Under the pieces are notes generated by a model, which worked only from the letters and a program-made list of their open reading frames with translations, was not told the origin of the DNA and made no database searches. The translations under genes were made by a program, and so were the position numbers. Shown here in pieces: positions 1-63,489 of a DNA stretch of 64,000 nt. The stretch comes from a virus (Duplodnaviria; Caudoviricetes). How positions within the stretch are numbered: position 1 is the stretch's first letter; every line of letters begins with the position of its first letter. Location: IMG/VR virus record IMGVR_UViG_3300031994_000004. One strand, written 5' to 3'.

Positions 1-280
1 CAAAACTTTACAGACTGCATCTTCAGTTTTGAAATGGTTTGATAAATTCCTTGACCTCAGTTATAATTCAGTTATTGAAGGCCGAGCTTGGTGGGTTTCC
101 GAACCAGTTCAAGATGATGTCAAGCAGTATTTGGAAAGTCAAAAAATCCGATCCGAATACAGTTCACAAATTAGTGAATTAGAGAATAAGAAAAGTAAAG
201 AAGAAACTCGTTTTAATGAATACGATAGAAAGTATCGTGATAACTTTGTAAGAGTAAGAACTGCCAAATCCGATTTCTAA
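1..280 (+). CDS. DF-tail protein, 5'-truncated by window edge
   Basis: Frame open from base 2; ends VRTAKSDF*. Confidence 0.7.
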   Translation, partial: KTLQTASSVLKWFDKFLDLSYNSVIEGRAWWVSEPVQDDVKQYLESQKIRSEYSSQISELENKKSKEETRFNEYDRKYRDNFVRVRTAKSDF

Positions 281-291
281 AGGAGACAACA

Positions 292-528
292 ATGTTTTTC
301 AAAAAGAAGCAACCAGTAGAACCACAGTACATCACCAAGGACAATAAACTTGTTGGTGTAAAAATGGGCGAAAAGGAATACAGAATTGCCGCCTATGACT
401 TAATGATGTCTAACAGTCCAGGACAGAAATCTATTTATCTGTTTGACAAGTTCGGACAGAAAGTAGCCTGGGACATTAAATCATTTGAAGAACTGGACGA
501 TATGTTGCGAAGTAATTTTCAGGGATAA
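292..528 (+). CDS. hypothetical protein
   Basis: AAGGAG RBS, 78 aa. Confidence 0.7.
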   Translation: MFFKKKQPVEPQYITKDNKLVGVKMGEKEYRIAAYDLMMSNSPGQKSIYLFDKFGQKVAWDIKSFEELDDMLRSNFQG

Positions 529-592
529 AATTTTGTCCTGCTGACTCTTTCGTAACTAATTTGTTCATAAATAGACTAAAGGAAATTTGATT

Positions 593-1042
593 ATGAAAGA
601 ATTAAGTTGTGGTTTTATTATTATTAACAGGAAAAATCCAAAACAAATTTTGGCTTGCCAGCCAAATGGTCGCAGACCAAATACTCCTGGTAACTATGAC
701 ATTCCGAAAGGTCACCGTGAAGCTGGTGAAACAACTTTGGAGACAGCTATCAGAGAGTTAAAAGAAGAAACTGGTTTCACGATTACAGACGAAAAGATTT
801 TTGACTGTGGTTTGTTCCAGTATCTTAAAAACAAAGATTTGTATGTGTACCTAATGTTTGTGGATTGTGATATACACGAACTGTACTGCGATAGTAAGTT
901 TGAGTTACACGGCAAAATGGTTAATGAAATTGTTGGTTACAAATGGACTGATGATTTTCGTTTGTTCTATAAGTCGCTCCAACCTATTATTCAGGAATGT
1001 TTAGAACACTATGATGAAGGTTATTATGAAGAAGTTAATTAA
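593..1042 (+). CDS. Nudix hydrolase (Ap4A-hydrolase-like)
   Basis: Nudix box GHREAGETTLETAIRELKEETG; N-terminal SCGFII. Confidence 0.85.
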   Translation: MKELSCGFIIINRKNPKQILACQPNGRRPNTPGNYDIPKGHREAGETTLETAIRELKEETGFTITDEKIFDCGLFQYLKNKDLYVYLMFVDCDIHELYCDSKFELHGKMVNEIVGYKWTDDFRLFYKSLQPIIQECLEHYDEGYYEEVN

Positions 1043-1172
1043 AATTACACTAGGTGTATTAGGAATTACTGCCGTTGGTTTTTTCGTCAAACAAGAAAAG
1101 CGCAGATTGAAAAATCTCAGGCGTAACATTGATGAACTGAACCGAAAGCAACCGCCGAAAGCACCCAAATAA
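1026..1172 (+). CDS. small protein with N-terminal hydrophobic helix
   Basis: MKKLIKITLGVLGITAVGFF...; below ORF-track cutoff. Confidence 0.5.
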   Translation: MKKLIKITLGVLGITAVGFFVKQEKRRLKNLRRNIDELNRKQPPKAPK

Positions 1173-1182
1173 AATTTAACCA

Positions 1183-1220
1183 AAAAATCTATTGACAAGC
1201 TCAATAGATTTTTGTATTTT
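1183..1220 (+). promoter_or_regulatory. sigma70-type promoter cassette with hairpin over -35
   Basis: TTGACA 1192, 17 nt, TATTTT 1215; inverted repeat 1183-1195/1201-1213. Confidence 0.7.
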
Positions 1221-1227
1221 AATGACT

Positions 1228-1860
1228 ATGAAACTAACAAATATAAATCCTGAAACAATAAATCAAATACAGTTTGAAATCGCTCAAAAAGTCCTGAACG
1301 ATTGGTTAGATGCCAGTGGTTTTGATTTAGTTACAGAACTGTATCTAACAAAATTCAAATCTAATTACATTACCTGGGAAGGTAGAATGAAGTTTTTGAA
1401 AGAACCTTGGCTTAGAAAATTTAAGACTATTCCGCAGTTACAAAATGACAAAGATTTGGATGTGGAATTAGTCCAGATACAATTTGTACGAAATGAAAAA
1501 GGTTGGTATTTTGACTTATCCGGTAGTTGGTTTCATTATTGGGAACTGTCTTGCCAGTGTTATGATTGGTTTAGAACTGGTGAGAAAAATCCGTATAATG
1601 TGTTCAATAACAGAGTTATGAACTGTGAGAAAAAGTCACTTCAAGAATGGTTTATGAAGTTTGATGAATATATGGAAAAATCTTTATTGAATTTCCGTAA
1701 AGGTTTCTCTATTGTGTTCAATAAAGAACTTGAAAAAGATATGGCAGAAATTAAGAAACTGAATGAAAAACTTCAAGAATTGAATGACGAAAAACAGAAA
1801 CTGTACAAGCGTGGAGTAGCAAAAATTGAAAAAATGTTTGCTATGGCTGAAGATTTTTAG
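1228..1860 (+). CDS. DF-tail protein
   Basis: Ends KMFAMAEDF*; no RBS, ATG 7 nt after the -10. Confidence 0.75.
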   Translation: MKLTNINPETINQIQFEIAQKVLNDWLDASGFDLVTELYLTKFKSNYITWEGRMKFLKEPWLRKFKTIPQLQNDKDLDVELVQIQFVRNEKGWYFDLSGSWFHYWELSCQCYDWFRTGEKNPYNVFNNRVMNCEKKSLQEWFMKFDEYMEKSLLNFRKGFSIVFNKELEKDMAEIKKLNEKLQELNDEKQKLYKRGVAKIEKMFAMAEDF

Positions 1861-1865
1861 TCCTT

Positions 1866-1930
1866 TGTAAACATTATTTTACATAATTTTACATTTTTCT
1901 ATTGACAAACTGTGTTTATTTTTCTATATT
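1866..1930 (+). promoter_or_regulatory. promoter cassette with TGTAAA-N6-TTTACA box
   Basis: Box 1866-1883; TTGACA 1902; TATATT 1925; GAGGTAA RBS downstream. Confidence 0.8.
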
Positions 1931-2216: not shown

Positions 2217-3287
2217 ATGATTTACTACTATGGCGGCTCTTTTGACCCTGTAACTCTCGCTCACATTGAACTGTTTAAGGCTATTGCTAAGCAGCTGGGA
2301 GAAAATGACACTCTCCTGATTGGTGTTGCTAACAATGACGAAAAGAATTATAAGGCACCGATTGGCGACCGAATGGTTATGGTACAGAAGTTGGTTGATA
2401 CCAAGCTCAAGAATACCCAGGTCCGAATCATCCGTCAGGACACACGAACATACAAGTTCTTGCAGGACTACCAGCAACAGTGTGGCAAAACTGATTTCAC
2501 GATTTGCGTTGGTGAAGATGAATGGAAGTCACTCTGCGATGGAAAATGGGTAAACTGGGATTTGCTTTTAAAGCAGTATGAATTTATCGTTTTCAACCGA
2601 GACGAATCTGACGATATTGTCCTTCCGGCACATATTAACCCGAATGTTTGGTTCCAGTCTGCTGGAGATACCAGTGGTATTTCTTCTTCGGCAACGAGAG
2701 AAATTCTGTTCCGCTACCCGGATTGTCATTATGAACAAGTTAAGAATTTGGTAACTCACCAGACCTTCCGTTACATTAAGGAACACGAACTCTATTTCCA
2801 AAATGGTCCTGACTATGAAAAGAAGGAAAAGCAGTTCCTTGCGGAGTATGCTATCAAGAAGGCCCAGAATGGTTGGGGTGAACCTAGTGTTACCACCGAT
2901 ACAGTTGCGTATAATGGTGAGCAAGTACTGTTGATTAGGCGTGGCAATTTCCCATACAAGAACAGTTGGTGCTTGCCGGGTGGTTTCTTTGAAAAGGATG
3001 ACGAAGATTTGAACTATGGCGCAGCTAGAGAATTGCGTGAAGAAACTGGTTTGGATTTGGATCCGACGAAGTTTGAACAAATTAAGACATACGGACACAA
3101 TTTTGACCCTCGTATGAAGATTGTTGATACGGCATTTTCTGTTCGTGTTCCGAAGGCCAAAATGAGTAAGGCTGCTGGTGCGGACGATGCTGCTGAAGCT
3201 CGTTGGTTTGATTTGAATGATTTGCCGAAGCTCGGTTTCCATCACGAACAAATTATTAAGGATTTTCTCAAAAAGCGAGCTGACTAA
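2217..3287 (+). CDS. nadD: NadD-type NaMN/NMN adenylyltransferase fused to a Nudix (ADP-ribose pyrophosphatase-like) domain
   Basis: GGSFDPVTLAH, VGED and ISSSATRE motifs; C-terminal LPGGF...AARELREETG and AGADDAAEARWF. Confidence 0.85.
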   Translation: MIYYYGGSFDPVTLAHIELFKAIAKQLGENDTLLIGVANNDEKNYKAPIGDRMVMVQKLVDTKLKNTQVRIIRQDTRTYKFLQDYQQQCGKTDFTICVGEDEWKSLCDGKWVNWDLLLKQYEFIVFNRDESDDIVLPAHINPNVWFQSAGDTSGISSSATREILFRYPDCHYEQVKNLVTHQTFRYIKEHELYFQNGPDYEKKEKQFLAEYAIKKAQNGWGEPSVTTDTVAYNGEQVLLIRRGNFPYKNSWCLPGGFFEKDDEDLNYGAARELREETGLDLDPTKFEQIKTYGHNFDPRMKIVDTAFSVRVPKAKMSKAAGADDAAEARWFDLNDLPKLGFHHEQIIKDFLKKRAD

Positions 3288-3592
3288 TGACATTTGATGA
3301 AATCGTTTTAACTGCGGCTGAAATGCAGTGTTTGATTGTTCCTGATAGAGATGGAAGAAATTACACTCTATACTCCGAAATGGAAGGGAATGACAATAAT
3401 TCAGTCTGTTGGATTTACCCAAATGCGTTTAATGGTAAAGGTTCAGTTTCGTCTACTTATGATTTTCCACAGGTAGATAGTTTTGAAAATTTCACCAAAG
3501 AAGAACTGATTGCTAGAATTGGTTATATCCGAAATCTTCACAAAGAACGATACATTGAAAAACGACTTGAAAAGATGCAACAGGATTTCTAA
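3287..3592 (+). CDS. DF-tail protein
   Basis: Ends KRLEKMQQDF*. Confidence 0.8.
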   Translation: MTFDEIVLTAAEMQCLIVPDRDGRNYTLYSEMEGNDNNSVCWIYPNAFNGKGSVSSTYDFPQVDSFENFTKEELIARIGYIRNLHKERYIEKRLEKMQQDF

Positions 3593-3996
3593 TGGAAATT
3601 TTTAATGATTTGTTTACAGACGAAGAAAAGGTACTGTTAAAGCAATATGGTGCCTATATGAAGTCAGCTGGGTTTTATTCAGTTGGTGCTGATGTTAATT
3701 GTTGGCGCTTTAAATATGGAGAAAAACCTAAGGATTCATTTTGGGTAGTTGATTTATACTCAGGAGATAAGTTTAGTCCAAGAATCTATCAGTTCAGATG
3801 GGAATTTGATGGAATACATGACCCAACACTTATAACAATAAATGAAGGGATTCATAATGCGTGTTACAAGCCAAAGGACTTTGATGAATTTAAAAAGCGA
3901 ATTGACGAAACAGTATCAAAGTTTGGTGAATACAAAAAGTACAAAAAGCAACTAATTGAAAACAAACGATTACGAAAAATTCAGGCGGATTTCTAA
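3592..3996 (+). CDS. DF-tail protein (WVVDL subfamily)
   Basis: Ends KRLRKIQADF*; paralog of 3996 and 48478. Confidence 0.8.
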   Translation: MEIFNDLFTDEEKVLLKQYGAYMKSAGFYSVGADVNCWRFKYGEKPKDSFWVVDLYSGDKFSPRIYQFRWEFDGIHDPTLITINEGIHNACYKPKDFDEFKKRIDETVSKFGEYKKYKKQLIENKRLRKIQADF

Positions 3997-4376
3997 TGGA
4001 TAGAACTGCACACAGATTTAAAATCTATACTGACTTTATGAAGTCTTTGGGTATTGTACAGAAAGACAGTGGAGGTTATAATAACTGGCAATACGAATAT
4101 AAGCCTGGAGAGTTCTTTTGGATTGCCGATTTACAAAATGCTGATTATGAATTTAAAGCGAGAGTATATGATTTTTATTGGAAGTTTGATGGTGAATTAA
4201 CTGCCGAAGATTTGTATGATGAAGAAGGAGAATTATTAGTTGAATATGACACGAAAAATTTTATAGAATTTAAGAAACTCATAAAAGAAAAACTTGCGGA
4301 ACTGAAACAGTATGATTTTATTAGAAAACAACACATTGAAGAGGACCGTTTGAAAAAACTATCAAAGGATTTCTAA
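3996..4376 (+). CDS. DF-tail protein (WVVDL subfamily)
   Basis: Ends DRLKKLSKDF*. Confidence 0.8.
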   Translation: MDRTAHRFKIYTDFMKSLGIVQKDSGGYNNWQYEYKPGEFFWIADLQNADYEFKARVYDFYWKFDGELTAEDLYDEEGELLVEYDTKNFIEFKKLIKEKLAELKQYDFIRKQHIEEDRLKKLSKDF

Positions 4377-4648
4377 TGACTGAACCTGAGATGATTGTAT
4401 TATTTAATAAACTGGACTGCGTTCTAGTTCCAGGACAACATTTGACAGAAGTCTACACAATGGAAGATGAAACTGCGATGTGTGTTATCGCAAGCCGTTT
4501 CAGTATGGTTTGTTTCTATGATGAAAATTTACCTTTTAGTAAAGTAACTCCTGAGATTATAAAACAGAAAGTAGCAAATTTTAAGATTAGAGATAAAATT
4601 GCTGTTATTCAAGAAAGAATTGTAAAAGCACAAGAGGATTTCAACTAA
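4376..4648 (+). CDS. DF-tail protein
   Basis: Ends ERIVKAQEDFN*. Confidence 0.75.
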   Translation: MTEPEMIVLFNKLDCVLVPGQHLTEVYTMEDETAMCVIASRFSMVCFYDENLPFSKVTPEIIKQKVANFKIRDKIAVIQERIVKAQEDFN

Positions 4649-4977
4649 TGGAAGAAATTTTTAACAAATTAGTAATAGAATTTGGATTGACAGTTTCTGT
4701 TGATAGAAAAGGCGAAAAGTACGGAAAACTACCTGGATTTGCGGGATTTTTGATTGCGTTGGTGCCGACACACGATTATATTATGGTGGCAAAGGAAGTT
4801 TCAAAAACTGACGAAGGAGATTGTTTTTATTTTGGTGCGAATGGTTATAACGATTATGACACAGCAAAAGTAGCAGTTTCCGAAATGATTTTAAAAGCAA
4901 AAGAAATGAATGTAAACAAAAAGATACAAAACTTGGAAACAGATTTCAAGTGTAAACAAAATTTTACATTAAATTGA
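4648..4977 (+). CDS. DF-tail protein with extension running into promoter box
   Basis: KKIQNLETDF followed by KCKQNFTLN*. Confidence 0.75.
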   Translation: MEEIFNKLVIEFGLTVSVDRKGEKYGKLPGFAGFLIALVPTHDYIMVAKEVSKTDEGDCFYFGANGYNDYDTAKVAVSEMILKAKEMNVNKKIQNLETDFKCKQNFTLN

Positions 4978-8415: not shown

Positions 8416-8904
8416 ATGGCTTATCCACGTAAGAAAATGACTATGGACGATGCTATTAAGATAGCAAAGAAGAACGGTTACAAAATTCAGGGCAAAGCAA
8501 AACAGAAGCTACCATCATTGTTGGGACCTGTATATGAACTGTTTGAAAGCAGAGAATCAATGTTCAGGCGTATCATTAAGGACTTGAATTTCAAAGTAAC
8601 AAAGCGCGGTGATTTCACTAGCGGTAATTTCTGTGACGAAGTTCACGATAACAAAGAAATTACTATGATTATGATGAAGACTGAACCGTGTTTCTTCGGC
8701 TTATTAAAGAATACAGAAGTCTATATGCCAGAGGGATTTGAAGTCCGTCAAGGTGAATCTGAATACTACATTCACCACACAAAGAAGGACAACATTAAAA
8801 TTACAACCTTCTCTCAGGGCGAAAAGCAGTTGAAGAAGTTGCTTAAGGACTATAAGAGATGCTTGGACGAACTGAAGATTAAGGAACTACAAGAGGATTT
8901 CTAA
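8416..8904 (+). CDS. DF-tail protein
   Basis: Ends LKIKELQEDF*. Confidence 0.8.
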   Translation: MAYPRKKMTMDDAIKIAKKNGYKIQGKAKQKLPSLLGPVYELFESRESMFRRIIKDLNFKVTKRGDFTSGNFCDEVHDNKEITMIMMKTEPCFFGLLKNTEVYMPEGFEVRQGESEYYIHHTKKDNIKITTFSQGEKQLKKLLKDYKRCLDELKIKELQEDF

Positions 8905-8905: not shown

Positions 8906-9772
8906 ATGGATTTAGTTGATATACTTGGAAATACTTTTGATTATTTGTTAGAAATTCCTAACAGAGTTAAGAAGTGTGTACACGAACAAGCTACACACGA
9001 AGAAAGGAATAATCTAATTGAATACAAACGAAAGAAAGCCATTATAGACAAACTAAAAGAAAAGTATGGATTGACTGGTTCCGGTGATGATGCTGGAGAA
9101 GGGTGGTGTAACATTGAGCTTGAATTACACGATAAAAAATGGAGTGTAATTTTTTGCCAAAATAAAACTATTCATATAAGTAATGAAAGTTATTTCAGTT
9201 ATTTTCCAGATTTTAAATGGAAATGGCCTGAACCAACTGACATGAATTCACGATGGGCATATTTGCCAAAAGATACTCCTGACGATTATTATTTAACTTG
9301 GGATAACCCAGTACCAATTAAAGAAGATGCTACATTTGAAGAAGTAGAAGCAATTTTACTTCGTTTAATTGAACGATTTAAAGAACTTAAATCTGAATAC
9401 AAAGAAAAGAAAGCAGCAGATGATTTTGACACAACTGCCGCTCTGTTTGAAAGTCTTAAATCGCATTATCATTTAATAGAACCTGAAAATTCTATAAATG
9501 CCACCAGATATGCTTACTCACCTGACATTAGGTATTTCGTGATTTCGTATTGTAAAGCACGAAACAAAATTTATGTTCCGTCTGGTTTGGAACAACAAGA
9601 AATAGTTTTGGGTGGACTGGAATCATTTACATTACCAGATTGTTGGGAAATGAAGTGTAATGAACAAACTATAACTGCTACAACATTTGATGAATACAAA
9701 AAGTATCTTGATGGTATTTTGAAACATTACAAGACCATAGAACAAAGTAAATGGGAAAAGTACGATATATGA
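8906..9772 (+). CDS. probable fusion of two DF-type modules
   Basis: Internal KEKKAADDFD near 9400-9430; ends SKWEKYDI*. Confidence 0.65.
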   Translation: MDLVDILGNTFDYLLEIPNRVKKCVHEQATHEERNNLIEYKRKKAIIDKLKEKYGLTGSGDDAGEGWCNIELELHDKKWSVIFCQNKTIHISNESYFSYFPDFKWKWPEPTDMNSRWAYLPKDTPDDYYLTWDNPVPIKEDATFEEVEAILLRLIERFKELKSEYKEKKAADDFDTTAALFESLKSHYHLIEPENSINATRYAYSPDIRYFVISYCKARNKIYVPSGLEQQEIVLGGLESFTLPDCWEMKCNEQTITATTFDEYKKYLDGILKHYKTIEQSKWEKYDI

Positions 9773-10341
9773 GAAAAGAACTTACAAAGAAAGAAAAAGA
9801 AAATCTACTCCAAATGAACCATTTATTAGAGCGAGAAATTGCTAAGTGGCCTGAATGGAGAGGTTTGGCAGACCTCACTTTATCTTTTGATTACACTAGA
9901 TTTCAAACTAGAAGAGCAGATAATTATAGTGAGAAATTAGATAAAATTTCGTTAAACCATCATTTAGACAGTACTTATATTTTAAGTGCTATGAACGTGG
10001 ATTTCACTGACAATAGAATACCTAGTAATTATAAAATGACTGTTGATATACATCCTTTTCAATGGCGTCCAAATCCAAGTAAAGGTATTTTACAATTTGA
10101 ATCTGAAATTGCTGCCGCTAATCGTATTTCAAAGAAAGTTGAAGATGATGACCTGTTAGATTGGGTAAGAATTGAAATGAAAAAGAAGGCAACTGAATTT
10201 GACAATGCTTGTAAATTCATTGAAAGTCACGAAGACCAATTTAGACAGTGGGAAGAAATGCAGAGACAAGCAAACATCTTCTATAATAAAATACAAAATA
10301 ACTTTAATGCGGAGTTAAGAGCGAATGGAGATTTTAAGTGA
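9769..10341 (+). CDS. DF-tail protein
   Basis: Ends ELRANGDFK*. Confidence 0.7.
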   Translation: MRKELTKKEKENLLQMNHLLEREIAKWPEWRGLADLTLSFDYTRFQTRRADNYSEKLDKISLNHHLDSTYILSAMNVDFTDNRIPSNYKMTVDIHPFQWRPNPSKGILQFESEIAAANRISKKVEDDDLLDWVRIEMKKKATEFDNACKFIESHEDQFRQWEEMQRQANIFYNKIQNNFNAELRANGDFK

Positions 10342-10765
10342 TATAATAGAATTTTTATTTAACCGTAAGAAAAAACAAAATGATGAAATCAGAACTGCGA
10401 TGGAACTAATTAACCCATACAAGTTTTTTCAAGAATTAGCAGATTATGCTCAGTCATTAGGTTTCGCAGTCGCAGAAGGTATTAGAGATAGTGGTTTTTC
10501 TTTAGAAGAACCAAATTATGCTGCACATGGTATACAGTTTAAAATGTATGGTATGATTGTAGCAGTTGGTTTAAATACTATATTGACTGATCGTTATACT
10601 GCAGGAATCTATTTTACAAGTGGTAAAGAAAGTGGTGGATTTGCAGGACCATTCACACTTACTACTTTAAAAAAGTGTAAAGAAGATTTATATAAATTAG
10701 TAGTAAGACTAAAAGAAAATCATCAACAAATTAAATTAGATAGCATTAACGAAGATTTTGTATGA
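10325..10765 (+). CDS. DF-tail protein
   Basis: Ends IKLDSINEDFV*. Confidence 0.8.
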   Translation: MEILSDIIEFLFNRKKKQNDEIRTAMELINPYKFFQELADYAQSLGFAVAEGIRDSGFSLEEPNYAAHGIQFKMYGMIVAVGLNTILTDRYTAGIYFTSGKESGGFAGPFTLTTLKKCKEDLYKLVVRLKENHQQIKLDSINEDFV

Positions 10766-11124
10766 CATTAGAAGATTTTTTCCAACAGTTACACGATTTT
10801 GGTATTTCAATGAATTTGAATGTAGATGAACTGTATGGTGATACTGCACTTCAGTACAAAATAAATCAAAATCAAAATTACAAACCGAATTATGTAAAGA
10901 ACGGAATTGAACTTGATAACAAAGACTGCTATATAATTTTTATTGCCATCTATCAACGAGAAGAAAATCAAGTCCGATATATGAACTGTGAACAACATTT
11001 AAGACTTTGTCAAGTAGACGAAGAAGGATTGGAACTGTGTAAACAGTGTATTTTAGATGGTATAAGAATACGAAAAGAAGAAGATAACCAATTAAGATTA
11101 GATAACATCAATAAAGATTTTTAA
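10762..11124 (+). CDS. DF-tail protein
   Basis: Ends LRLDNINKDF*. Confidence 0.8.
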   Translation: MTLEDFFQQLHDFGISMNLNVDELYGDTALQYKINQNQNYKPNYVKNGIELDNKDCYIIFIAIYQREENQVRYMNCEQHLRLCQVDEEGLELCKQCILDGIRIRKEEDNQLRLDNINKDF

Positions 11125-11186: not shown

Positions 11187-11220
11187 AAAATTAAACAAAA
11201 CAATGGAGATTAAAAAACTT

Positions 11221-12567
11221 ATGGAAATTAAAAACTATATTGACTTTCTTTCACAGAACAAGACAGAACGTGAATGTGTAGCATTTGCGGAACGTGAACT
11301 TCGTAATCACGGTTTCAAGTCTCGTAAAGAATTTGCAGATTTGTCTAGCGGCGATAAGGTCTATTACAAGAATAAGGACAAAAACATCGCTGCTTTTATC
11401 ATTGGTAAGCAAGGACTTAGTGGTAAGGGTTTGAATTTGCTCGGTGCTCATATTGACTCCCCACGATTGGATGTAAAGACTCAGCCGCTTTATGAAGATA
11501 CTGGTATGGGTTATTTTGACCTTCAGTATTATGGTGGCATTAAGAAGTACCAGTGGACTGCTCGTCCTCTCGCAATTCACGGTGTAGTTTGTAAGCTTGA
11601 CGGTACAAAGATTCCAGTAAAACTTGGTGATACTGGTAGTGGTTACACATTCTGTATCACAGACCTTCTTCCACATTTGGATAAGACACAAGCTGACCGA
11701 AAGGCTAGCGAAACCATCAAGGGCGAAAAGTTGGATTTGCTTTTGGGAACTGTAAAAATTGAAAAGGGTGAAGACGAAGATGAAGAAAAGGACCCGGTCA
11801 AGGCAAACATTCTCAAAATTCTCAAGGACCAATACAACATTGAAGAAGACGATTTTCTTTCTGCTGAATTTGAAGTAGTTCCAGCTGGTGAAGCATCATT
11901 TGTTGGTATTGACAAGTCTATGGTTGGTGGTTATGGTCAGGATGACCGCGTTTGTGCTTGGACTTCTTTGATGGCTCTCATTGATGTTGCCGACGAAAAT
12001 GAAGTTCCTGCTCGCACAAGTGGTTGTGTTCTAGTGGATAAGGAAGAAGTTGGTTCTATTTGTGCTACTGGTTCCGAATCCCGTTGGTTGGAAGATGTAC
12101 TTTCCGATCTGACCGGTGACTGCGGGCACGTAGAATTTGGTCGCATTTTGGCAAACACTAATATGCTCAGTTCCGATGTGTCTGCCGCTTATGACCCGCT
12201 CTATGGTGAAGTTTCTAACAAGGAAATGACCTGTAAGCTTGGTGGTGGTTTTATGCTTTCCAAGTATAATGGTGGTCGCGGTAAGGGTGGTGGCGCAGAT
12301 GCTAACCCGGAATTTATCGCTGCCGTTCGTAAGACATTGAACGATGCTGGCACCAAGTATCAGTTTGATACTATGGGTAAGGTAGATGTTGGCGGTGGTG
12401 GAACGATTGCTTCTATCGTCTGCCGTTTGAACATCAATGTTATGGACGCAGGTGTTCCAGTGCTCAATATGCACAGTCCAATGGAAATCACACACGTAGA
12501 TGACATTACCAGTACTTACGAAGGTTATAAGGCTTTCTTGAAGTCCGACCTTACGATTTTTGACTAA
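11221..12567 (+). CDS. M18 family aminopeptidase (ApeA/ApeB-like)
   Basis: GAHIDSPRL, YYGGIKKYQW, GQDDRVC, DKEEVGS, SSDV, GGGGTIA, MHSPME. Confidence 0.92.
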   Translation: MEIKNYIDFLSQNKTERECVAFAERELRNHGFKSRKEFADLSSGDKVYYKNKDKNIAAFIIGKQGLSGKGLNLLGAHIDSPRLDVKTQPLYEDTGMGYFDLQYYGGIKKYQWTARPLAIHGVVCKLDGTKIPVKLGDTGSGYTFCITDLLPHLDKTQADRKASETIKGEKLDLLLGTVKIEKGEDEDEEKDPVKANILKILKDQYNIEEDDFLSAEFEVVPAGEASFVGIDKSMVGGYGQDDRVCAWTSLMALIDVADENEVPARTSGCVLVDKEEVGSICATGSESRWLEDVLSDLTGDCGHVEFGRILANTNMLSSDVSAAYDPLYGEVSNKEMTCKLGGGFMLSKYNGGRGKGGGADANPEFIAAVRKTLNDAGTKYQFDTMGKVDVGGGGTIASIVCRLNINVMDAGVPVLNMHSPMEITHVDDITSTYEGYKAFLKSDLTIFD

Positions 12568-13538: not shown

Positions 13539-15262
<1,724 letters not shown>

Positions 15263-18806: not shown

Positions 18807-18822
18807 GGAGGACCTGGTTCTA

Positions 18823-25526: not shown

Positions 25527-25732
25527 TTTGTATGGAAGAACTAACTGCGACAATTAAAAGACTTCAACTGTTGAAAGATAATACAGATAGTCCTGAAGAA
25601 ATTGTGGCAACCGATTTAATGATTACTAACCTTACCAATTTGGCTAGACAGTTCGGTATGTTGCTAGATTCTCCTGAATTTAAACAAATGGTAGAAGAAT
25701 ACAAAATAAATTCAAAAATAAAGGATGATTAA
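25523..25732 (+). CDS. hypothetical protein
   Basis: ATGA coupling. Confidence 0.55.
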   Translation: MICMEELTATIKRLQLLKDNTDSPEEIVATDLMITNLTNLARQFGMLLDSPEFKQMVEEYKINSKIKDD

Positions 25733-51332: not shown

Positions 51333-51706
51333 TGGGAATACCTATGCATCGGGTGAAAAATAAACCAGCATTTACTTGTTATCCATATACAGAATTGAAC
51401 TGGGTTTATGATTTTTCGCTCAACAGTATTGAACGAAAAATGTATTTACATTTTATGGATAGATTAAAACCAATTTGTGAAGAACATGTCGGCGAATGGA
51501 CTGATATGTTTAATTGTTGGGACCCGTTCGGATCTGATTTAGAGATTGTTGTTTGGCGAGTACTTATTCTATTGGGATATAAGCATTGGAACCAGTATTA
51601 TTATGCTAAAATGGATGATGATACTTTGTTCGCAATTTTAAACAAACGAATCAAAGAATTTAAATGCCAGAAGAAAGTAGAAAAGATGGAGGCAGATTTT
51701 GCATGA
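51332..51706 (+). CDS. DF-tail protein
   Basis: Ends KKVEKMEADFA*. Confidence 0.8.
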   Translation: MGIPMHRVKNKPAFTCYPYTELNWVYDFSLNSIERKMYLHFMDRLKPICEEHVGEWTDMFNCWDPFGSDLEIVVWRVLILLGYKHWNQYYYAKMDDDTLFAILNKRIKEFKCQKKVEKMEADFA

Positions 51707-52037
51707 ACCTTGGATAAGTTCAAAGGAATTAAGAGATGTTGTGGATAAATTTTATAATACCGTCATATTAGACAGCGAAAGAAATAAAAAATTAGCCAAA
51801 TGTATAGATGAAACTGAAATTAAAGAAATGCAGAACCGATATAAAGCATTATGGTGGAATGAAGCTGTAACACTTGTTATTATGGAGAAGATTTTAGGTG
51901 TAACTCATTTTTCCGAACCAGTATTTAGTCAATTCATAAACTTGACTAATAACAAACTAATTGAGATAATTGACTACGGGATAAAAGAGTATCAAGTTAG
52001 GAACAAATTAAATAAACTTGAATCAGATTTCATCTAA
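51699..52037 (+). CDS. DF-tail protein
   Basis: Ends NKLNKLESDFI*. Confidence 0.8.
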   Translation: MHEPWISSKELRDVVDKFYNTVILDSERNKKLAKCIDETEIKEMQNRYKALWWNEAVTLVIMEKILGVTHFSEPVFSQFINLTNNKLIEIIDYGIKEYQVRNKLNKLESDFI

Positions 52038-54803: not shown

Positions 54804-55190
54804 ATGGCAGCAATGACACCCGAACTAAAAGCACGATATAAAGAACTCGGAATTCACAATAGTTGCTGGAAAGGCCCGAATGGAAAGACATATACAGTTT
54901 GTCGCGGTGGCGAATTTTATATGCACACGATCTGCGAAACATACGTTCCACGCAGATATGTTATGGGAAAACAACAATGTAAGGCACAAGGACTTGACCC
55001 AGAAGAAATGGTAAAATACATTGAGTATAAGGCACTAAGGTATCACAGTTCTTATGGTGGCGGTGGTTATGAAAAAACAATTTCATACAATACAGTAGAA
55101 GAATTTAACAAACTGTGGGCTATGTTCCAAATGGGATATAAAGACGCTGAAATGCGAAACAAACTAAATAACATCAAGGAAGATTTCTAA
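54804..55190 (+). CDS. DF-tail protein
   Basis: Ends NKLNNIKEDF*. Confidence 0.8.
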   Translation: MAAMTPELKARYKELGIHNSCWKGPNGKTYTVCRGGEFYMHTICETYVPRRYVMGKQQCKAQGLDPEEMVKYIEYKALRYHSSYGGGGYEKTISYNTVEEFNKLWAMFQMGYKDAEMRNKLNNIKEDF

Positions 55191-56961: not shown

Positions 56962-57609
56962 ATGGCAATAGACCCACAATTATATCTTGATATAGCAGCT
57001 AACAATGTGGACCCGATGGTGTTTGAGTTTGATGACTTAGGCGACGGTCCAGGTCCAATGTTCGGTGGTATGGGTGTAAAGATTACTGGAACTTATGGCG
57101 GTGCACCAGTTGATGTATGCCGTGGTCCTTGTATAAGATACACTCCAATGAAAACTGCTGAAGAAATTGAAGCCGAACAACAAGCAGAATACGAAGCAGA
57201 ACAAGCTAGAATTAAATTAGAATACGAAACTTGGACTAATAAATTCAAAGCAAATCATTATACAACAGAACTTTCTTTTATCTTTGGTAATTTGAACAAG
57301 CAACAGTTGAAATGGATAAAGCACATTCTTGATACTGACGAAGATGCTACTTACATTTATGCTGGAAACAAAGATAGAAGCGAATTTTTAAGTATAAACG
57401 ATGTCTGCGCCCATGTCACAAAATCCAAGATCAAAAATGGAAAACTTGTTTGTGAGATTGAATTTGATTACACAGATCCGGGTTTAAAACTTTTTCGTAA
57501 TTGGCAGAATGGATTTGCCCCAAAGTTGAATTTAAATACTATATTTGTGTATGATGAAAAGGACCCAAATTTACAGAACTTAAAATTTCTTTGCTTGGAG
57601 TTTGTATGA
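56962..57609 (+). CDS. hypothetical protein; C-terminus resembles a degenerate prohead-protease domain
   Basis: SINDVCAHVTKSKIKNGKLVCEIEFDYTDPGLKL. Confidence 0.4.
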   Translation: MAIDPQLYLDIAANNVDPMVFEFDDLGDGPGPMFGGMGVKITGTYGGAPVDVCRGPCIRYTPMKTAEEIEAEQQAEYEAEQARIKLEYETWTNKFKANHYTTELSFIFGNLNKQQLKWIKHILDTDEDATYIYAGNKDRSEFLSINDVCAHVTKSKIKNGKLVCEIEFDYTDPGLKLFRNWQNGFAPKLNLNTIFVYDEKDPNLQNLKFLCLEFV

Positions 57610-58040
57610 TAATCAAACGGAACGATTTTACAACTTATTTAGAAAATCATATTACGAAAGAACAAAATCAGGTATTACAAAGTGTACCTGGTTTTCGTGT
57701 AAAGTATATAAATGTGCTTTCTATTTTAACTGAAATGATGGAACGTAATTATCACTGGACAAATAATAAAGCTTGGGAAAGCGATTTTTACGATTTTATT
57801 CCTGAGACATTCAAAGAGTATTATAAAGAAACACTGCCTGGGAATTTTAGAGTTAATTTCTGTGTTCAGTTTAATCATTTACCAGCTGAATGGTTGTATA
57901 ATTATACCAGTATTCTAAATGAAAGTTTATTTGACTTTATAAAATCAAGCAACTATGCAGATTTCTATAATATAGAATATCTGGTTAAAACGATTGAAAA
58001 CATTTTAAAAATTGCTAAATTTAAGATAGATGACTTCTAA
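57606..58040 (+). CDS. DF-tail protein
   Basis: Ends AKFKIDDF*. Confidence 0.7.
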   Translation: MIIKRNDFTTYLENHITKEQNQVLQSVPGFRVKYINVLSILTEMMERNYHWTNNKAWESDFYDFIPETFKEYYKETLPGNFRVNFCVQFNHLPAEWLYNYTSILNESLFDFIKSSNYADFYNIEYLVKTIENILKIAKFKIDDF

Positions 58041-58422
58041 TAGTGAACTTATATTTCAACGATTGCTTGAACTCCAAAAAGTATCTTATGAATTTAATCT
58101 AGTAACGAGATACAACAAATCCGGATATTTTCAAGCATTTTATACATTACACCCAAATGATTTAAAATCATATTTAAATCAAGATTTGGGTATTGGTGGA
58201 TTTGTTATAAAACAGTTTTTCTTTTTGGGTATCAGAATAAACAAAGATTTTAGATTTAGAATAAAAACAAAACTTGTATATAGTGATTTTCCATTAAGTA
58301 AAGTTCAAAAAATTGACGATATAGAAGATTTGAGAACGTATATCAAAGAATATATAGCTTATACGAAACGAAATTTAATGAATGTTAAACTAGAGAAAAT
58401 TCAGTGGGATTTCAATGACTGA
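58030..58422 (+). CDS. DF-tail protein
   Basis: Ends VKLEKIQWDFND*. Confidence 0.75.
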   Translation: MTSNSELIFQRLLELQKVSYEFNLVTRYNKSGYFQAFYTLHPNDLKSYLNQDLGIGGFVIKQFFFLGIRINKDFRFRIKTKLVYSDFPLSKVQKIDDIEDLRTYIKEYIAYTKRNLMNVKLEKIQWDFND

Positions 58423-58717
58423 AGATGAAGTAAAAGCATTTTTCACCAAATATAATCTTAAAATACTTGGAGTAGATAAAGAAAACATTTGGCCTTGTGT
58501 GATTGGAAAAAACGATATTAAATTGGGTTTTGTAAACAAAAAGAGGACAATTTATAGACAAGTATTTTATATTTCACTTGTAGATAGGTTTGACTGTGCT
58601 ATAATGTTTGATGATTATAAAAAATGTTGTAACTTCTACGAAACCGAAACTGATAAACATTTTAAAGAATTAAGAGAATTCCGAAAAATTAAACTATTAC
58701 AGGAAGATTTTGAATGA
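58415..58717 (+). CDS. DF-tail protein
   Basis: Ends RKIKLLQEDFE*. Confidence 0.8.
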   Translation: MTEDEVKAFFTKYNLKILGVDKENIWPCVIGKNDIKLGFVNKKRTIYRQVFYISLVDRFDCAIMFDDYKKCCNFYETETDKHFKELREFRKIKLLQEDFE

Positions 58718-59502: not shown

Positions 59503-59552
59503 ACAAAGTTTTACATAAAATCTATTGACTTTGTTCAAAATTTTTCTATATT
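59498..59552 (+). promoter_or_regulatory. promoter cassette with box (short spacing)
   Basis: Box 59498-515; TTGACT 59525; TATATT 59547. Confidence 0.75.
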
Positions 59553-59579
59553 AATGATATAGTGATAGTGAGGTAAACT

Positions 59580-60424: not shown

Positions 60425-60895
60425 ATGTCAGATAAAGAACAACAACTGCTTGATTTGTTTGAAAAATACAAGGAAGACTTAGACGGTGGTAGACTCGAAG
60501 CTCTTTTTGAATTTACTGAAGAGTGTGAAAAAGAATTAAAGCAAAGTCCTAAGTATGGAAAAATTACTACTGCAATTATGCACTCTTATATTATGAGTGC
60601 TTATCAAGTAGGACGCAAGCGAGCAGAAGACTACTATAAAGCACTAAGGAAAGATGAAGAAGAACACAGGTTCCATTTGACTTGTGAAGAAACACCACCA
60701 GATGGCGAACTTGTATACTGTGTTGGTAAAGACCACTGTACACAGAAGGAATTGTCTGGAATCTATTTCTATCATAGTGGATATTGGTGGACTGATGAAC
60801 AGCGCAAGTCTGACGAATGTTGGTTTGATGGGTCAGGAATAAATGATTATGTATTTTATAAATGGATGAAACTTCCAAAAGACAAAAATGACTAG
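60425..60895 (+). CDS. hypothetical protein with DUF551-like C-terminus
   Basis: EETPPDGELV...WMKLP. Confidence 0.55.
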   Translation: MSDKEQQLLDLFEKYKEDLDGGRLEALFEFTEECEKELKQSPKYGKITTAIMHSYIMSAYQVGRKRAEDYYKALRKDEEEHRFHLTCEETPPDGELVYCVGKDHCTQKELSGIYFYHSGYWWTDEQRKSDECWFDGSGINDYVFYKWMKLPKDKND

Positions 60896-61196
60896 AAAAG
60901 AATTTAAAGAAAAATTATTTTCTTATTGTCAGTCATTGGGTTATACAATAACTGAACATTCGGTTGAATTTGAACCGTTTGGACCTTCTTTATTTTTATT
61001 TTCAAAATTTGATAGTTCATTTCATTATACACCAATACCTCCAAAAGGAAAAGTAACAACATTAAGAGGAATAAAAATAGATTATAATGAAGGAACATTA
61101 GAGATATATAAACATATTGCTAAAAAATGGTGTATGATAACAAAAGAATATAAAATAGAACAGAAACTTGAAAAAATTGGCAAGGATTTTGAATGA
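60888..61196 (+). CDS. DF-tail protein
   Basis: Ends QKLEKIGKDFE*. Confidence 0.8.
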   Translation: MTRKEFKEKLFSYCQSLGYTITEHSVEFEPFGPSLFLFSKFDSSFHYTPIPPKGKVTTLRGIKIDYNEGTLEIYKHIAKKWCMITKEYKIEQKLEKIGKDFE

Positions 61197-61465
61197 CAAG
61201 AGAAGAGTTTTTAAAAGCAATAAACGAATATAATATAAAAGTTTCTGCTTTACATAATTTGTATTATAAAGACATTGAAAGTCCAATAGTTTTATATGAT
61301 TGTAAATGTTATAGTGATAAAATACTGTATTTTGTTGTACAATCAGATAAAACATTTATAAATTCTTATGACGATTTATGTAAATTTTTTAAGAAAAAAC
61401 AAATAGAATATAAACAAAGTTTTATAAAAAATAAATTAAAAGAAATTAGTATAGATTTTGAATGA
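61193..61465 (+). CDS. DF-tail protein
   Basis: Ends NKLKEISIDFE*. Confidence 0.8.
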   Translation: MTREEFLKAINEYNIKVSALHNLYYKDIESPIVLYDCKCYSDKILYFVVQSDKTFINSYDDLCKFFKKKQIEYKQSFIKNKLKEISIDFE

Positions 61466-61468
61466 GGT

Positions 61469-61810
61469 ATGAATATGACGTTAAGAGAAGAGATGGAATT
61501 TGAACTTAGATTTTTCAAAAAATGTTTTGATGAAATTTTAAAAAATAATTCTGATTATAGAACAAAAATTTATAGAAAAAATGGAGTTCTTAATCTTTCT
61601 ATTATAGAAACATTAGATGAAGAACCTGAAATGGAAATTTATATATCATATACAAAAAATAAATATGATTCAGATGATTTTATAGTTAATGTTGAATTTC
61701 CATATTCTTATGATGATAATTATAATAATAAAGTAATAAAAATTTCTTATGCAGAAATTGATAATATACCAGATTTTTGTGCGGAACTTGCAAAAGATAA
61801 TTTAAAATAA
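61469..61810 (+). CDS. hypothetical protein
   Basis: GAGG RBS. Confidence 0.6.
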   Translation: MNMTLREEMEFELRFFKKCFDEILKNNSDYRTKIYRKNGVLNLSIIETLDEEPEMEIYISYTKNKYDSDDFIVNVEFPYSYDDNYNNKVIKISYAEIDNIPDFCAELAKDNLK

Positions 61811-61842
61811 GTTGATAAACTTAATAAAGATATTGGGTTAAA

Positions 61843-62154
61843 ATGAGTTACTTAGATGAAAAACTCCAAGAACTATTAAAAAGTTATGGATTGTATTGTA
61901 ATTCAGTAGGTAATTGGTTTACAAAACAATTACCAGATTCTCGTCATAATTGGATTGTTGCCGAGTATAATGATGATAATAAATCAATTTATATTGTTGA
62001 TAAGATTTACTTAAAAAATAATGAGATAATGTTTGGCGACTGCGTGAAATTAAAAAAGATTAATGACATCAAAAATAAATTAGGGCAGTTATTCAAAGAC
62101 ATTAAACAAATTAAAGTTGCACAAAAAATAAATGAATTTAAAAAGGATTTTTAA
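61843..62154 (+). CDS. DF-tail protein
   Basis: Ends QKINEFKKDF*. Confidence 0.8.
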   Translation: MSYLDEKLQELLKSYGLYCNSVGNWFTKQLPDSRHNWIVAEYNDDNKSIYIVDKIYLKNNEIMFGDCVKLKKINDIKNKLGQLFKDIKQIKVAQKINEFKKDF

Positions 62155-62156
62155 TT

Positions 62157-62363
62157 ATGGATATATTGGAACTAAATCAAAAAATATCAGAAGAAATAAG
62201 AGCAATAGTATCTATGTTTGGTAACATTAGTGTATCAGAATTTAATGTTAAAGTAGACAATGACAAAATTAACATAAGTTACAAAACAGAATATGGAGAA
62301 TCTAAATGTGAAAAAGATGATTCTGGTAAACGTATTAGAACACATAAATTAAAACTAAAGTAA
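62157..62363 (+). CDS. hypothetical protein
   Basis: Stop lies inside the promoter box. Confidence 0.55.
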   Translation: MDILELNQKISEEIRAIVSMFGNISVSEFNVKVDNDKINISYKTEYGESKCEKDDSGKRIRTHKLKLK

Positions 62364-62424
62364 ACAAAGTTTTACATAAAACTTATTTAAAACCATTGAC
62401 AGTTGTCAGTGGTTTTTCTATATT
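62359..62424 (+). promoter_or_regulatory. promoter cassette with box and hairpin
   Basis: Box 62359-76; TTGACA 62396; TATATT 62419; AAAACCATTGACA/TGTCAGTGGTTTT. Confidence 0.85.
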
Positions 62425-62459
62425 TACTTATGTAAACAACAAAACAAGAGGTAGCAAAA

Positions 62460-62759
62460 ATGAACATTTCCAAAATCAAAGAAATATGCGACAAGCTCCC
62501 GGATGTTAAGCCGCTCCAGCTCAAATATGGCGAACCGAAATCTCAGTTCATTCGTGAACTTGCAAAGAAGCATAACATTCCTCTTGCTGATGCGGCAGAT
62601 TTTGGTAACATTGAACCTGTTGTGATTGACGAAAACGCAAAGAAGGTTGATTTTGACACTACTGCGTTCTTCTCTAACCAAAATCTTGTTATGTTTTTGG
62701 ACGAAATGTACATTAACGGAATTACTGGTGAAACCTTTTTCAATGGGGAGAACAACTAA
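62460..62759 (+). CDS. hypothetical protein
   Basis: GAGGT RBS. Confidence 0.65.
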   Translation: MNISKIKEICDKLPDVKPLQLKYGEPKSQFIRELAKKHNIPLADAADFGNIEPVVIDENAKKVDFDTTAFFSNQNLVMFLDEMYINGITGETFFNGENN

Positions 62760-62956
62760 TGAATTTTACACAAAAACAAATTAACATCATTTCTAACGCA
62801 CTTCTTTGTTATAAAGATGAAAGTTATGAAACGGAAGATGAAATGGAAGATTTGGAAAAGTTGATAAACAAGTTTTCCGATTTGGAAGAATTGCCTGCCC
62901 AAGTTCATAAGATTATGGAAAATCTTAACAACATTTCAAATGTTGAGGTACACTAA
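62759..62956 (+). CDS. hypothetical protein
   Basis: TAATG coupling. Confidence 0.55.
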   Translation: MNFTQKQINIISNALLCYKDESYETEDEMEDLEKLINKFSDLEELPAQVHKIMENLNNISNVEVH

Positions 62957-63489
62957 TGCAAAAACAGATTTTAAAGAAAGCAAAACACGAACTACAAACG
63001 GCCTGGAGACGTGCTATGGAAGATGCCGGTTTCTATAAGGCCATTGAATACTCCGGTTGGTCTGCGTGGCGAGATAGTTATTCAACGAAGTGTAGATTTC
63101 AGTCTGCTGATACTGTTGGTGATTACAGAAGAATGCAAATTTACACTGACTATAGCCCAAACACCCGTAATGCGGAACTGTTGTTTGGCTTGGAATATGA
63201 CGAGAAAGTAGATAAGTTCTATATTGCGTATGTTTACAAGCCGAAGCCATCAGGAAATTATCCACCGAACAAGGAAGATGAAGAAAAAATTTTTATGAAT
63301 TATTTGGATTTTGATTATTTCAGGTGGCGTATCACTAAGGACCAAAACGCAATTTATAAAATGGTTTTTCCGAACTGGGAAGGCGATTTTACTGCGAACA
63401 AAAATCGTATTTGTTTGGATTTTTGCGGCTATGTTTCTAAAATGGTTGGTGCGTGGATGAGAGAACGAAAAATGACTGAAGATTTCTAA
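62956..63489 (+). CDS. DF-tail protein
   Basis: Ends RERKMTEDF*. Confidence 0.75.
   Translation: MQKQILKKAKHELQTAWRRAMEDAGFYKAIEYSGWSAWRDSYSTKCRFQSADTVGDYRRMQIYTDYSPNTRNAELLFGLEYDEKVDKFYIAYVYKPKPSGNYPPNKEDEEKIFMNYLDFDYFRWRITKDQNAIYKMVFPNWEGDFTANKNRICLDFCGYVSKMVGAWMRERKMTEDF

Follow-up and report, generated by a model that had tools for sequence, protein, structure and literature searches.

A helical C-terminal tail shared by many small, putatively early proteins of an uncultured T4-like phage

A 64,000-nucleotide stretch of viral DNA (Duplodnaviria; Caudoviricetes), hereafter the window, raises the question of why about 40 small and apparently dissimilar proteins should all end in one C-terminal tail that closes on Asp-Phe (the DF tail). 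The window is the reverse strand of positions 49654–113653 in a 210,185-bp IMG/VR contig (IMGVR_UViG_3300031994_000004) estimated to be 56% complete; nearly all of its genes lie on the + strand, and its coding density is ~95%. The reading that we favor, and to which we give about an even chance, is that the tail is an exposed helical handle that binds something common and is carried by a lineage-specific, expanded set of early proteins.

The tail motif and the level of its constraint

Among + strand open reading frames (ORFs) of at least 40 residues in the window, 40 end in DF followed by 0–2 residues, as compared with 4 of 210 on the opposite, non-coding strand. The count of ~40 such ORFs in an earlier note on this DNA is thus borne out, and the tandem runs of DF genes described there are real. 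In a non-overlapping gene set the figure is 39 of 154, or 40 of ~154 once gene 4648–4977, in which nine residues follow DF, is added. Across the whole contig, 129 of 423 genes end in DF plus 0–2 residues, and ~124 of the 129 have the longer motif described below. With ~124 tail proteins on a contig that is 56% complete, the whole genome probably holds about 200.

We aligned the 129 tails on the Asp of the terminal D-F, numbered 0 (Phe is +1 and upstream residues are negative). The consensus is hydrophobic-K(-14)-x6-[KR](-7)-L-x-K-[ILM]-x-x-D-F. The earlier note had described a motif of about 10 residues; the motif stands, but its true length is ~16 residues, with K-14 in 111 of 129 tails and K/R-7 in 116 of 129. 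L/I/M is found at -6 in 91 tails, K at -4 in 55 and I/L/M at -3 in 105, and D-F is invariant. The protein stops exactly at the Phe in 72 tails, and 57 (44%) carry one or two residues more; almost always the Phe is followed by nothing or by polar residues (E, K, ND). Searched with a hidden Markov model (HMM) of the tail, the motif is almost exclusively C-terminal, and the few internal matches are tails followed by short acidic or polar extensions, rarely of 3–20 residues. The 288-residue product of window gene 8906–9772 has a tail-like segment ending DDF in mid-sequence (residues 156–174, 7.5 bits) and may represent a tail protein with an additional part fused at its C-terminus.

A recurrent ending could mark a signal in the nucleic acid or in translation (a ribosome-binding site, translational coupling, a recombination junction or a nascent-peptide effect at termination) with no functional peptide at all. 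One codon does point that way: codon -1 is strongly biased to end in G (GAG 26 vs 3.8 expected), and this G together with the GA of the Asp codon builds a Shine-Dalgarno GGA at -9 of the next ATG, the position at which the Shine-Dalgarno purines of the phage's other genes lie. Many stops also overlap the ATG of the following gene. A ribosome-binding site is thus embedded in the tail, yet it is not the explanation of the tail. The same coupling is seen for genes without a tail; the tail is retained in 10762–11124 and 51699–52037, where the next gene is not close; and the distance from DF to the stop is not fixed, ranging from 0 to 13 codons. At the remaining synonymous sites, variation is much the same as in the genome at large. 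At K-14 the codons AAA and AAG occur 68:43, against 67.9:43.1 expected from genome usage (p=0.98), and L-6 is encoded by all six Leu codons; D (98 GAT : 26 GAC, p=0.003) and F (70 TTT : 54 TTC, p=0.05) are mildly skewed. The constraint therefore acts on the peptide, as the earlier note had argued from its varying codons, with codon -1 the only strong exception. The explanation by a nucleotide-level signal is largely refuted by the synonymous-site analysis, and we consider it very improbable; a nascent-peptide effect and a DNA-level signal were both rejected on the synonymous-site and spacing data.

The earlier note had proposed scanning the whole genome and related phages with a tail profile, and such a profile matches both the contig and its tag-bearing relatives. 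On whole records, a 26-position tail profile gave 108 matches in this contig, 9, 19, 29 and 25 in four partial contigs of relatives, and a single match, at the level of chance, in a 355-kb jumbo phage that is 93% complete. DF-ending genes make up 72 of 283, 34 of 171 and 32 of 178 genes in three relatives (18–25%; gene calls made in this analysis). In the distant 355-kb jumbo phage G001, which has only 32 of the contig's 423 proteins and serves as a negative control, 2 of 446 genes end in DF, the chance level; with so few shared proteins it is of no use in tracing a reader gene that co-occurs with the tag. Contigs encoding a 63–67% identical NadD-Nudix protein also bear DF tails; relatives fetched via a radical-SAM gene were too distant and lacked the tag. 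A strict degenerate DNA pattern for the tail matched only three viral contigs and is too narrow to gauge its distribution.

Selection on the tail can be followed in orthologues. Reciprocal-best orthologues in the relatives were found for 27 contig tail proteins, and D-F is kept in 27 of 27, with six extra residues after it in one. In these orthologue pairs the tail is 50% identical and the head (the protein body upstream of the tail) 38% (p=7e-4). The protein encoded by 27480–27815 has 31 metagenome relatives at 64–96% identity, and the tail is kept in 20 of the 20 full-length ones aligned.

Heads, terminal helix and proposed function

The heads had been described as dissimilar, falling into unrelated subfamilies. 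After the tails were stripped, BLAST (E 1e-3) separated the 129 proteins into 116 components; the few clusters consist mostly of neighboring genes, which points to tandem duplication, and the expansion looks like tandem duplication followed by divergence. Reading the sequences revealed a recurrent N-terminal helix, M-T-x-E-E-F-x-x-hydrophobic-x-x-K-Y-G-L/F. In five-fold cross-validation of a head-only HMM, held-out members outscored non-members (p=6e-8), with 34 of 118 above the non-members' 95th percentile; a head-only HMM built from one three-member subfamily and iterated recruited no further members. When 1.84 billion representative proteins were searched with a profile built from 30 typical members, 124 clusters matched at E ≤1e-3. 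All but one of these are 74–135 residues long, nearly all begin with the N-terminal helix, and 119 of 124 have D-F no more than nine residues from the end. An HMM of the N-terminal module, trained solely on the database proteins found by this family profile, recognizes 34% of the contig tail proteins when 5% false positives are allowed and 50% when 10% are; three proteins that it recognizes strongly are tail-less. By these sequence profiles the largest head class is one hyper-divergent alpha+beta family with ~34–50% of the members. The heads do comprise more than one structural class, as the earlier note implied, but a third to a half of them share the N-terminal module of a single family.

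The classes that bear the tail are alpha+beta proteins, all-alpha proteins (a low-confidence prediction) and four membrane-anchored proteins. The last of these qualify the earlier note's statement that no recognizable membrane protein of the window carries the tail: the four members with an N-terminal transmembrane segment lie outside it. Conservation of the tail is independent of head class, with K-14 in 80% and K/R-7 in 89% of members without the N-terminal module and in 86% and 91% of those with it; the tail can therefore be separated from any single head. Against Pfam, no member of the 124 scored above a family cut-off; PHROGs, searched with ten members, yielded no significant match; the tail and family profiles returned nothing meaningful from PDB sequences; and one tail protein, searched against 50,697 cultured-phage records, had no homologue there. 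Nor did longer, fused versions of the family turn up when they were searched for, which is weak evidence. A second set of small proteins, at ~26–41 kb of the contig in window orientation and outside the window, starts M-K/Q-L-D-E-A-x-x-I-L-x-x-N-G-Y; its N-terminal helix resembles that of the tail family, and none of its members has the DF tail.

We predicted the structures of two tail proteins with AlphaFold2. The model of 27480–27815 (alignment of 20 orthologues and two paralogues) has a mean predicted local distance difference test score (pLDDT) of 86 and a predicted template-modeling score of 0.78, with a helix at residues 3–12, five strands and a helix at 81–110. The model of the helical-type protein 50222–50563 is of low confidence (pLDDT 56), with six helices, no strand and a last helix at 86–112, and was used only for its secondary-structure class. 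In the ESM Atlas, three viral clusters without names match the 27480–27815 model at template-modeling (TM) scores of 0.80–0.83, and a feature search there likewise returned only viral clusters without names. The nearest named folds are YjbR/MmcQ, DUF1801, YbjN and CesT-like (TM 0.47–0.57). Weak structure matches in the PDB comprise DR2400/YjbR, the TriTu immunity protein, type III secretion chaperones, frataxin and the MotA C-terminal domain (Z up to 6.9). The modeled head appears to be a common two-layer alpha+beta arrangement that is uninformative on function.

The terminal helix was analyzed in 357 pooled tails (123 of this contig, 123 of relatives and 111 of database proteins), in which K-14 is present in 94%, K/R-7 in 86% and D in 100%. 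Pro plus Gly amount to ≤2% at nearly every position from -28 to -2, which fits a helix of ~30 residues. Hydrophobic positions recur at a spacing of 3–4 (-29, -26, -22, -19/-18, -15, -12), and the phase then shifts to -10, -6, -3 and +1. The helical hydrophobic moment points to ~282–297 degrees over -30 to -8 and to ~95 degrees over -7 to +1; on a straight helix, this turn means that the terminal stripe faces away from the body-packing face. In the same projection, K-14, K/R-7 and D0 edge one side of the terminal stripe. The net charge of the tail is about +1. This pattern suggests that the terminal stripe is an exposed interaction surface.

The same helix might instead be purely a structural or folding element: all tail proteins would descend from one ancestor, the terminal helix with its capping D-F would be the best-kept part of the fold, and no shared partner would exist. 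The recognizable N-terminal module in 34–50% of the members fits such a history, as do the full-length, nearly all DF-ended proteins of the 124 database clusters, the paralogy of adjacent genes, and the AlphaFold2 helix, which is continuous and confident within an alpha-beta5-alpha sandwich like the frataxin, YjbR and type III secretion chaperone folds. Structural constraint of this kind, however, usually keeps hydrophobic patterns and not specific charges, whereas the charged residues of the pooled tails have persisted while the rest decayed. The tail stripe is out of phase with the body-facing stripe, tail-less family members exist, the tail also occurs on the all-alpha (low-confidence) and membrane-anchored heads, and its conservation does not track head class. 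We consider a purely structural role rather unlikely, although far from negligible. Were it correct, the set would still be among the largest lineage-specific paralogue expansions seen in phage, with heads diverged beyond recognition under a fixed terminal helix.

An exposed stripe could also serve pairing, the tails binding each other so that homo- and hetero-oligomers among 100+ paralogues would form a combinatorial network and not converge on one hub. The segment is amphipathic with heptad-like spacing, K-14, K/R-7 and D0 edge its stripe, and co-expression of all members from early promoters is likely. For a stable coiled coil, however, three to four hydrophobic positions are few, and like charges at -7 would presumably oppose each other in a symmetric pair. 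This arrangement seems to us improbable.

The assignment of the tail proteins to the early class comes from promoter context. On its coding strand the contig has 47 matches to TTGAC[AT]-N16-18-TA[TA][AT][AT]T, and on the opposite strand a single one. Upstream of 104 of 112 tail genes on the + strand, the nearest promoter-like motif is of sigma70 type and not of the T4 late type (TATAAATA); the same holds for 175 of 250 other genes. Since this nearest motif is mostly of sigma70 type, we infer that the tail proteins are early proteins. Strong promoters of the form TTGACA-N17-TATATT (for example at 34563–34648, 59503–59579 and 62364–62459) often have a conserved AAGTTTTACA(T/A)AAA box upstream. 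The sigma70-type promoters and GGA Shine-Dalgarno sites argue against a Bacteroidota host.

Under the reading of the tail as an exposed handle, an uncultured rumen T4-like jumbo phage would carry a lineage-specific, massively expanded set of small early proteins, generated most likely by tandem duplication and fast divergence. About 35–50% still belong to one alpha+beta family, with a five-stranded sheet between the N-terminal helix MTxEEF..KYGL and a C-terminal helix of 30 residues; other heads include all-alpha and membrane-anchored proteins, and bodies would diverge or be replaced. What selection would keep fixed is the final 16 residues of the terminal helix, hydrophobic-K-x6-[KR]-L-x-K-[ILM]-x-x-D-F, and this handle would let many different early proteins bind one common surface, on a phage or host partner or possibly on each other. 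Several points weigh against this reading. The helix is an integral element of the fold in a third to a half of the proteins, and its conservation could be partly structural and inherited. More than 100 co-expressed proteins competing for one site would be an odd design. The argument from the helix faces presumes a straight, ideal helix, and the second model (50222–50563) is of low confidence (pLDDT 56).

A bolder version, which we advance only tentatively, makes the tail a phage-wide address tag. One phage or host reader would grip the ~200 early proteins by the K...K/R-L..[ILM]..D-F face and handle them as one class, for recruitment, sequestration, timing or delivery, and reader and tag would co-evolve between lineages. 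In G3, the most divergent tag-bearing relative, position -7 is relaxed across the tails (K 19, N 14 and L 12 of 71) while K-14 and D-F stay; a coordinated shift of this sort would be expected were there a lineage-specific reader. Nearly a third of the phage's genes, without database annotation, share this one module, which offers a single experimental entry to more than 100 proteins. If the tail docks on one partner, that partner would reveal how a large T4-like phage organizes or delivers its early host-takeover proteins, and the tail would be a portable tag.

The phage and the tail genes of the window

The contig encodes a family-B T4-type DNA polymerase, a DnaB-like helicase, an RNA ligase, an NAD-dependent ligase and gp46/47-like nuclease subunits, as well as UvsX and gp32; it further encodes NAD salvage enzymes, GroEL, Hsp20, an M18 aminopeptidase and an SPFH protein. 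The polymerase is only 27–31% identical to those of cultured T4-like phages, which places the phage in a T4-like lineage that is deep and uncultured. Two stretches of the window, searched as nucleotide sequence against cultured phages, gave no match. A run search found the array at 47300–52200 in contigs from sheep and bovine gut RNA libraries, such contigs being no proof of transcription. One sheep gut RNA-library contig matches the window only at 50208–50225 and 50547–50566. Both 18–20 nt stretches are a tail-coding end plus gene junction, with ~270 nt of unrelated sequence between them, and the match could be a swapped gene cassette or merely a paralogous array. An orthologue of 50222–50563 (P0040) is named in the public record as a protein of a Methanobrevibacter metagenome-assembled genome; this label is most likely a binning artefact, because the promoters and ribosome-binding sites are of bacterial type.

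The early region of the window holds a proteostasis cluster: an M18 aminopeptidase (11203–12567), Hsp20 (13044–13517), a GroEL-type chaperonin (13584–15197), with no GroES seen nearby, and an SPFH/Band 7 protein (44927–46207). A Thg1-like tRNA-His guanylyltransferase (PF04446, E 3e-32) is encoded among early genes at 37769–38563. Elsewhere on the contig, a 593-residue protein (L005:8028-9809:-) contains a GH10 xylanase domain (E 3e-51); it is possibly an auxiliary metabolic gene that would fit a rumen habitat.

All members described below are on the + strand; scores in bits are those of the tail HMM, and N-module scores are those of the N-terminal-module HMM. About four members are weak (below 6 bits): the 3' end of a gene for 216 aa whose start lies 370 nt before the window (1–280; ..RVRTAKSDF, with K-14 and R-7 present; 5.7 bits), a 222-aa protein without a Pfam match (1192–1860; ..MFAMAEDF; 2.4 bits), a 196-aa protein (9751–10341; ..AELRANGDFK; 4.6 bits) and a 149-aa protein (57591–58040; ..KIAKFKIDDF; 2.8 bits).

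The genes between 3287 and 4977 encode DF-tail proteins of 101 aa (3287–3592; ..KRLEKMQQDF; 17.2 bits), 134 aa (3592–3996; ..KRLRKIQADF; 18.3 bits), 126 aa (3996–4376; ..DRLKKLSKDF; 16.0 bits) and 90 aa (4376–4648; ..RIVKAQEDFN; 11.7 bits). The second and third are tandem paralogues and a BLAST pair, and the third has the N-terminal module (N-module 12.8 bits). They are followed by a 109-aa protein with the tail and a nine-residue extension (4648–4977; ..KKIQNLETDF + 9 aa; 12.2 bits), and the L019 protein at the same position likewise ends in DF plus an extension. Farther along are proteins of 162 aa (8416–8904; ..LKIKELQEDF; 10.6 bits), 146 aa (10325–10765; ..IKLDSINEDFV; 15.0 bits) and 120 aa (10762–11124; ..LRLDNINKDF; 14.4 bits); the last has the N-terminal module and a 78-nt gap after it, its tail being kept though no gene abuts.

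From 15286 to 16740 the products measure 119 aa (15286–15645; ..VKLNKIDGDF; 16.0 bits; N-terminal module, 17.0 bits), 97 aa (15645–15938; ..NREDKILEDF; 12.1 bits), 124 aa (15938–16312; ..LRLSRLTKDFE; 12.8 bits) and 143 aa (16309–16740; ..INLEKIKGDF; 9.3 bits; N-terminal module, 16.5 bits). Proteins of 129 aa (18787–19176; ..KRMKNIQKDF; 15.6 bits) and 127 aa (19176–19559; ..EREQKIKEDF; 9.9 bits) are adjacent, and one of 122 aa with the N-terminal module lies at 20363–20731 (..KKIKKMEGDFE; 14.7 bits; N-module 16.7 bits). A 103-aa member has a Trp-rich head (25725–26036; ..KKLDEANKDF; 9.7 bits). The 108-aa product of 26130–26456 has the family N-terminal module (15.3 bits) and is tail-less, ending ..RLEKFKRR with no DF. 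The modeled 111-aa protein (27480–27815; ..IKLEQINSDF; pLDDT 86) is 35% identical to its 116-aa paralogue (28653–29003; ..MKLSKMQEEDFQ).

Two further paralogues form a BLAST pair, one of 100 aa (38807–39109; ..AKQLKLLGDF; 8.2 bits) and one of 108 aa (39361–39687; ..EKKLKFQGDF; 10.2 bits). The earlier note had grouped them in a trio with a gene at 40740; the two are indeed paralogous and tailed, but the ORF at 40698–40994 has no terminal DF. The shortest member is 58 aa long (41047–41223; ..EKQLELTSDFA; 12.0 bits). Next come proteins of 110 aa with the N-terminal module (47348–47680; ..KKLKEMQTDF; 14.2 bits; N-module 21.8 bits) and of 156 aa (48478–48948; ..KKHDLEKDFT; 10.2 bits).

The run that ends at 52037 begins with two proteins of the helical type, of 118 aa (49866–50222; ..EKLESIKEDF; 20.8 bits) and 113 aa (50222–50563; ..RRLNKIKEDF; 17.4 bits; the second one modeled). 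It continues with proteins of 127 aa (50563–50946; ..VKEIGIAEDF; 11.4 bits; N-terminal module, 20.2 bits) and 128 aa (50946–51332; ..CKLNCIKKDFE; 15.1 bits), and closes with two more of the helical type, of 124 aa (51332–51706; ..KKVEKMEADFA; 14.8 bits) and 112 aa (51699–52037; ..NKLNKLESDFI; 19.9 bits), the latter being the last gene of the run. Toward the end of the window are members of 128 aa (54804–55190; ..NKLNNIKEDF; 18.6 bits), 130 aa (58030–58422; ..VKLEKIQWDFND; 17.7 bits), 100 aa (58415–58717; ..RKIKLLQEDFE; 11.4 bits; N-terminal module, 23.6 bits) and 102 aa (60888–61196; ..QKLEKIGKDFE; 18.4 bits), the last with the N-terminal module and forming the first row of the family alignment. 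Two others with this module are of 90 aa (61193–61465; ..NKLKEISIDFE; 7.8 bits; N-module 19.5 bits) and 103 aa (61843–62154; ..QKINEFKKDF; 10.9 bits; N-module 21.9 bits). The final member, of 177 aa, has no Pfam match (62956–63489; ..RERKMTEDF; 9.1 bits).

Comparison with known systems

The DF-tail motif is not mentioned in the T4 late transcription review (PMC2988020), nor, by term searches, in jumbo-phage reviews and in work on 360–402 kb T4-like gut phages. For the heads, comparison of the model with frataxin, YjbR/MmcQ, YbjN, type III secretion system (T3SS) chaperone-like sandwiches and the T4 MotA C-terminal domain gives TM 0.50–0.57 and Z 4–7, scores of common arrangements. The predicted topology fits the frataxin/YjbR/T3SS-chaperone sandwich, in which the N- and C-terminal helices lie on one face of an antiparallel sheet, although the best matches reach only Z 5.8–6.9. 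Unlike the DF-tail proteins, the frataxin, YjbR, YbjN, T3SS-chaperone and MotA families have no conserved C-terminal extension, and the head has no sequence similarity to them.

Variable bodies joined to one constant targeting module are known from poxvirus ankyrin/PRANC proteins, the capsid-targeting sequences of T4 internal proteins and encapsulin cargo peptides; the T4 capsid-targeting sequence is N-terminal and is cleaved off. The DF-tail proteins resemble these repertoires in combining many variable bodies with one short constant terminal module, with no relation in sequence or fold. That the tail genes belong to the early class argues against capsid loading. The C-terminal tip of SSB, D-D-D-I-P-F, is a disordered acidic hub-docking peptide that serves many partners and is read with its free carboxylate. 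The DF tail shares with it an acidic residue followed by a terminal Phe but is helical and basic, and 57 of 129 tails have one or two residues after the Phe.

C-terminal degrons are an established principle, and the tail might act as a stability timer, by which a host or phage protease or chaperone would clear or handle the early proteins together after the early phase. The early class of the tail genes is compatible with this, as is the presence of GroEL, Hsp20, the M18 aminopeptidase and the SPFH protein in the same early region. However, the bacterial C-terminal degrons that are known consist of short, non-polar or basic ends recognized at the free terminus, whereas the DF tail is a 16-residue charged helix that has residues after the Phe in 44% of cases; its composition is unlike that of ssrA-type degrons. 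No AAA+ protease or PDZ protein was identified among the phage proteins scanned, which also counts against a degron. We hold little expectation that the tail is one.

Clamp-interacting peptides of the PIP-box type have the form Q-x-x-[ILM]-x-x-[FY]-[FY]. The [ILM]-x-x-D-F of the tail resembles the last five PIP positions and also has basic flanks, but the tail has an invariant Asp at the first aromatic position and no conserved Gln. The canonical L-D-D-F-F form is present elsewhere in the phage, in the polymerase and a methyltransferase. The polymerase (L006:5731-8490:-) ends PIP-like in GLDDFFV, and the adjacent N6/N4 DNA methyltransferase (PF01555; L006:5049-5747:-) ends GLNDFFE. A 117-aa protein (L004:9431-9784:-) ends SFEDFFV, and a 130-aa protein (L005:14344-14736:-) ends SILDFLN. 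By their sequences, these four endings are probably the real clamp-binding tails of the phage; a clamp-tethered methyltransferase would be unusual for a phage.

In the T4 family, gp43, gp33 and gp55 have interchangeable C-terminal sliding-clamp-binding epitopes, hydrophobic-acidic in character, on flexible divergent linkers (Geiduschek and Kassavetis 2010, PMC2988020). The DF tail could accordingly be a motif of this type that tethers early proteins to a T4-type clamp (gp45) of the phage. As in T4, it would be a C-terminal peptide with a D-F core, common to several different proteins, read by one partner and ending hydrophobic-x-x-D-F. The phage is T4-like (polymerase, UvsX, gp32 and gp46/47 were identified), and D-F is the core of its own probable clamp motif as well. 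The registers differ, however: the four probable clamp ligands have hydrophobic-x-D-F-[FL], and the tail lacks the second hydrophobic residue, the residue after DF being absent or polar nearly always. The analogy with T4 clamp binding drawn in the earlier note is weakened by the different, L-D-D-F-F-register tail of the polymerase, since the T4 epitopes are interchangeable. No member of the clamp family PF02916 was found in this contig, which is 56% complete; this also counts against clamp binding, and more than 100 clamp ligands before the onset of replication would be hard to rationalize. Clamp tethering is thus, in our view, an unlikely role for the DF tail. Where the T4 epitopes sit on flexible linkers, the tail has none: it ends a rigid 30-residue helix that is low in Pro and Gly and continuous in both models. 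It is itself helical over 16 residues, has conserved lysines at -14, -7 and -4, and is carried by more than 100 small, putatively early proteins, as compared with the three to four replication and transcription proteins that bear the T4 epitopes.

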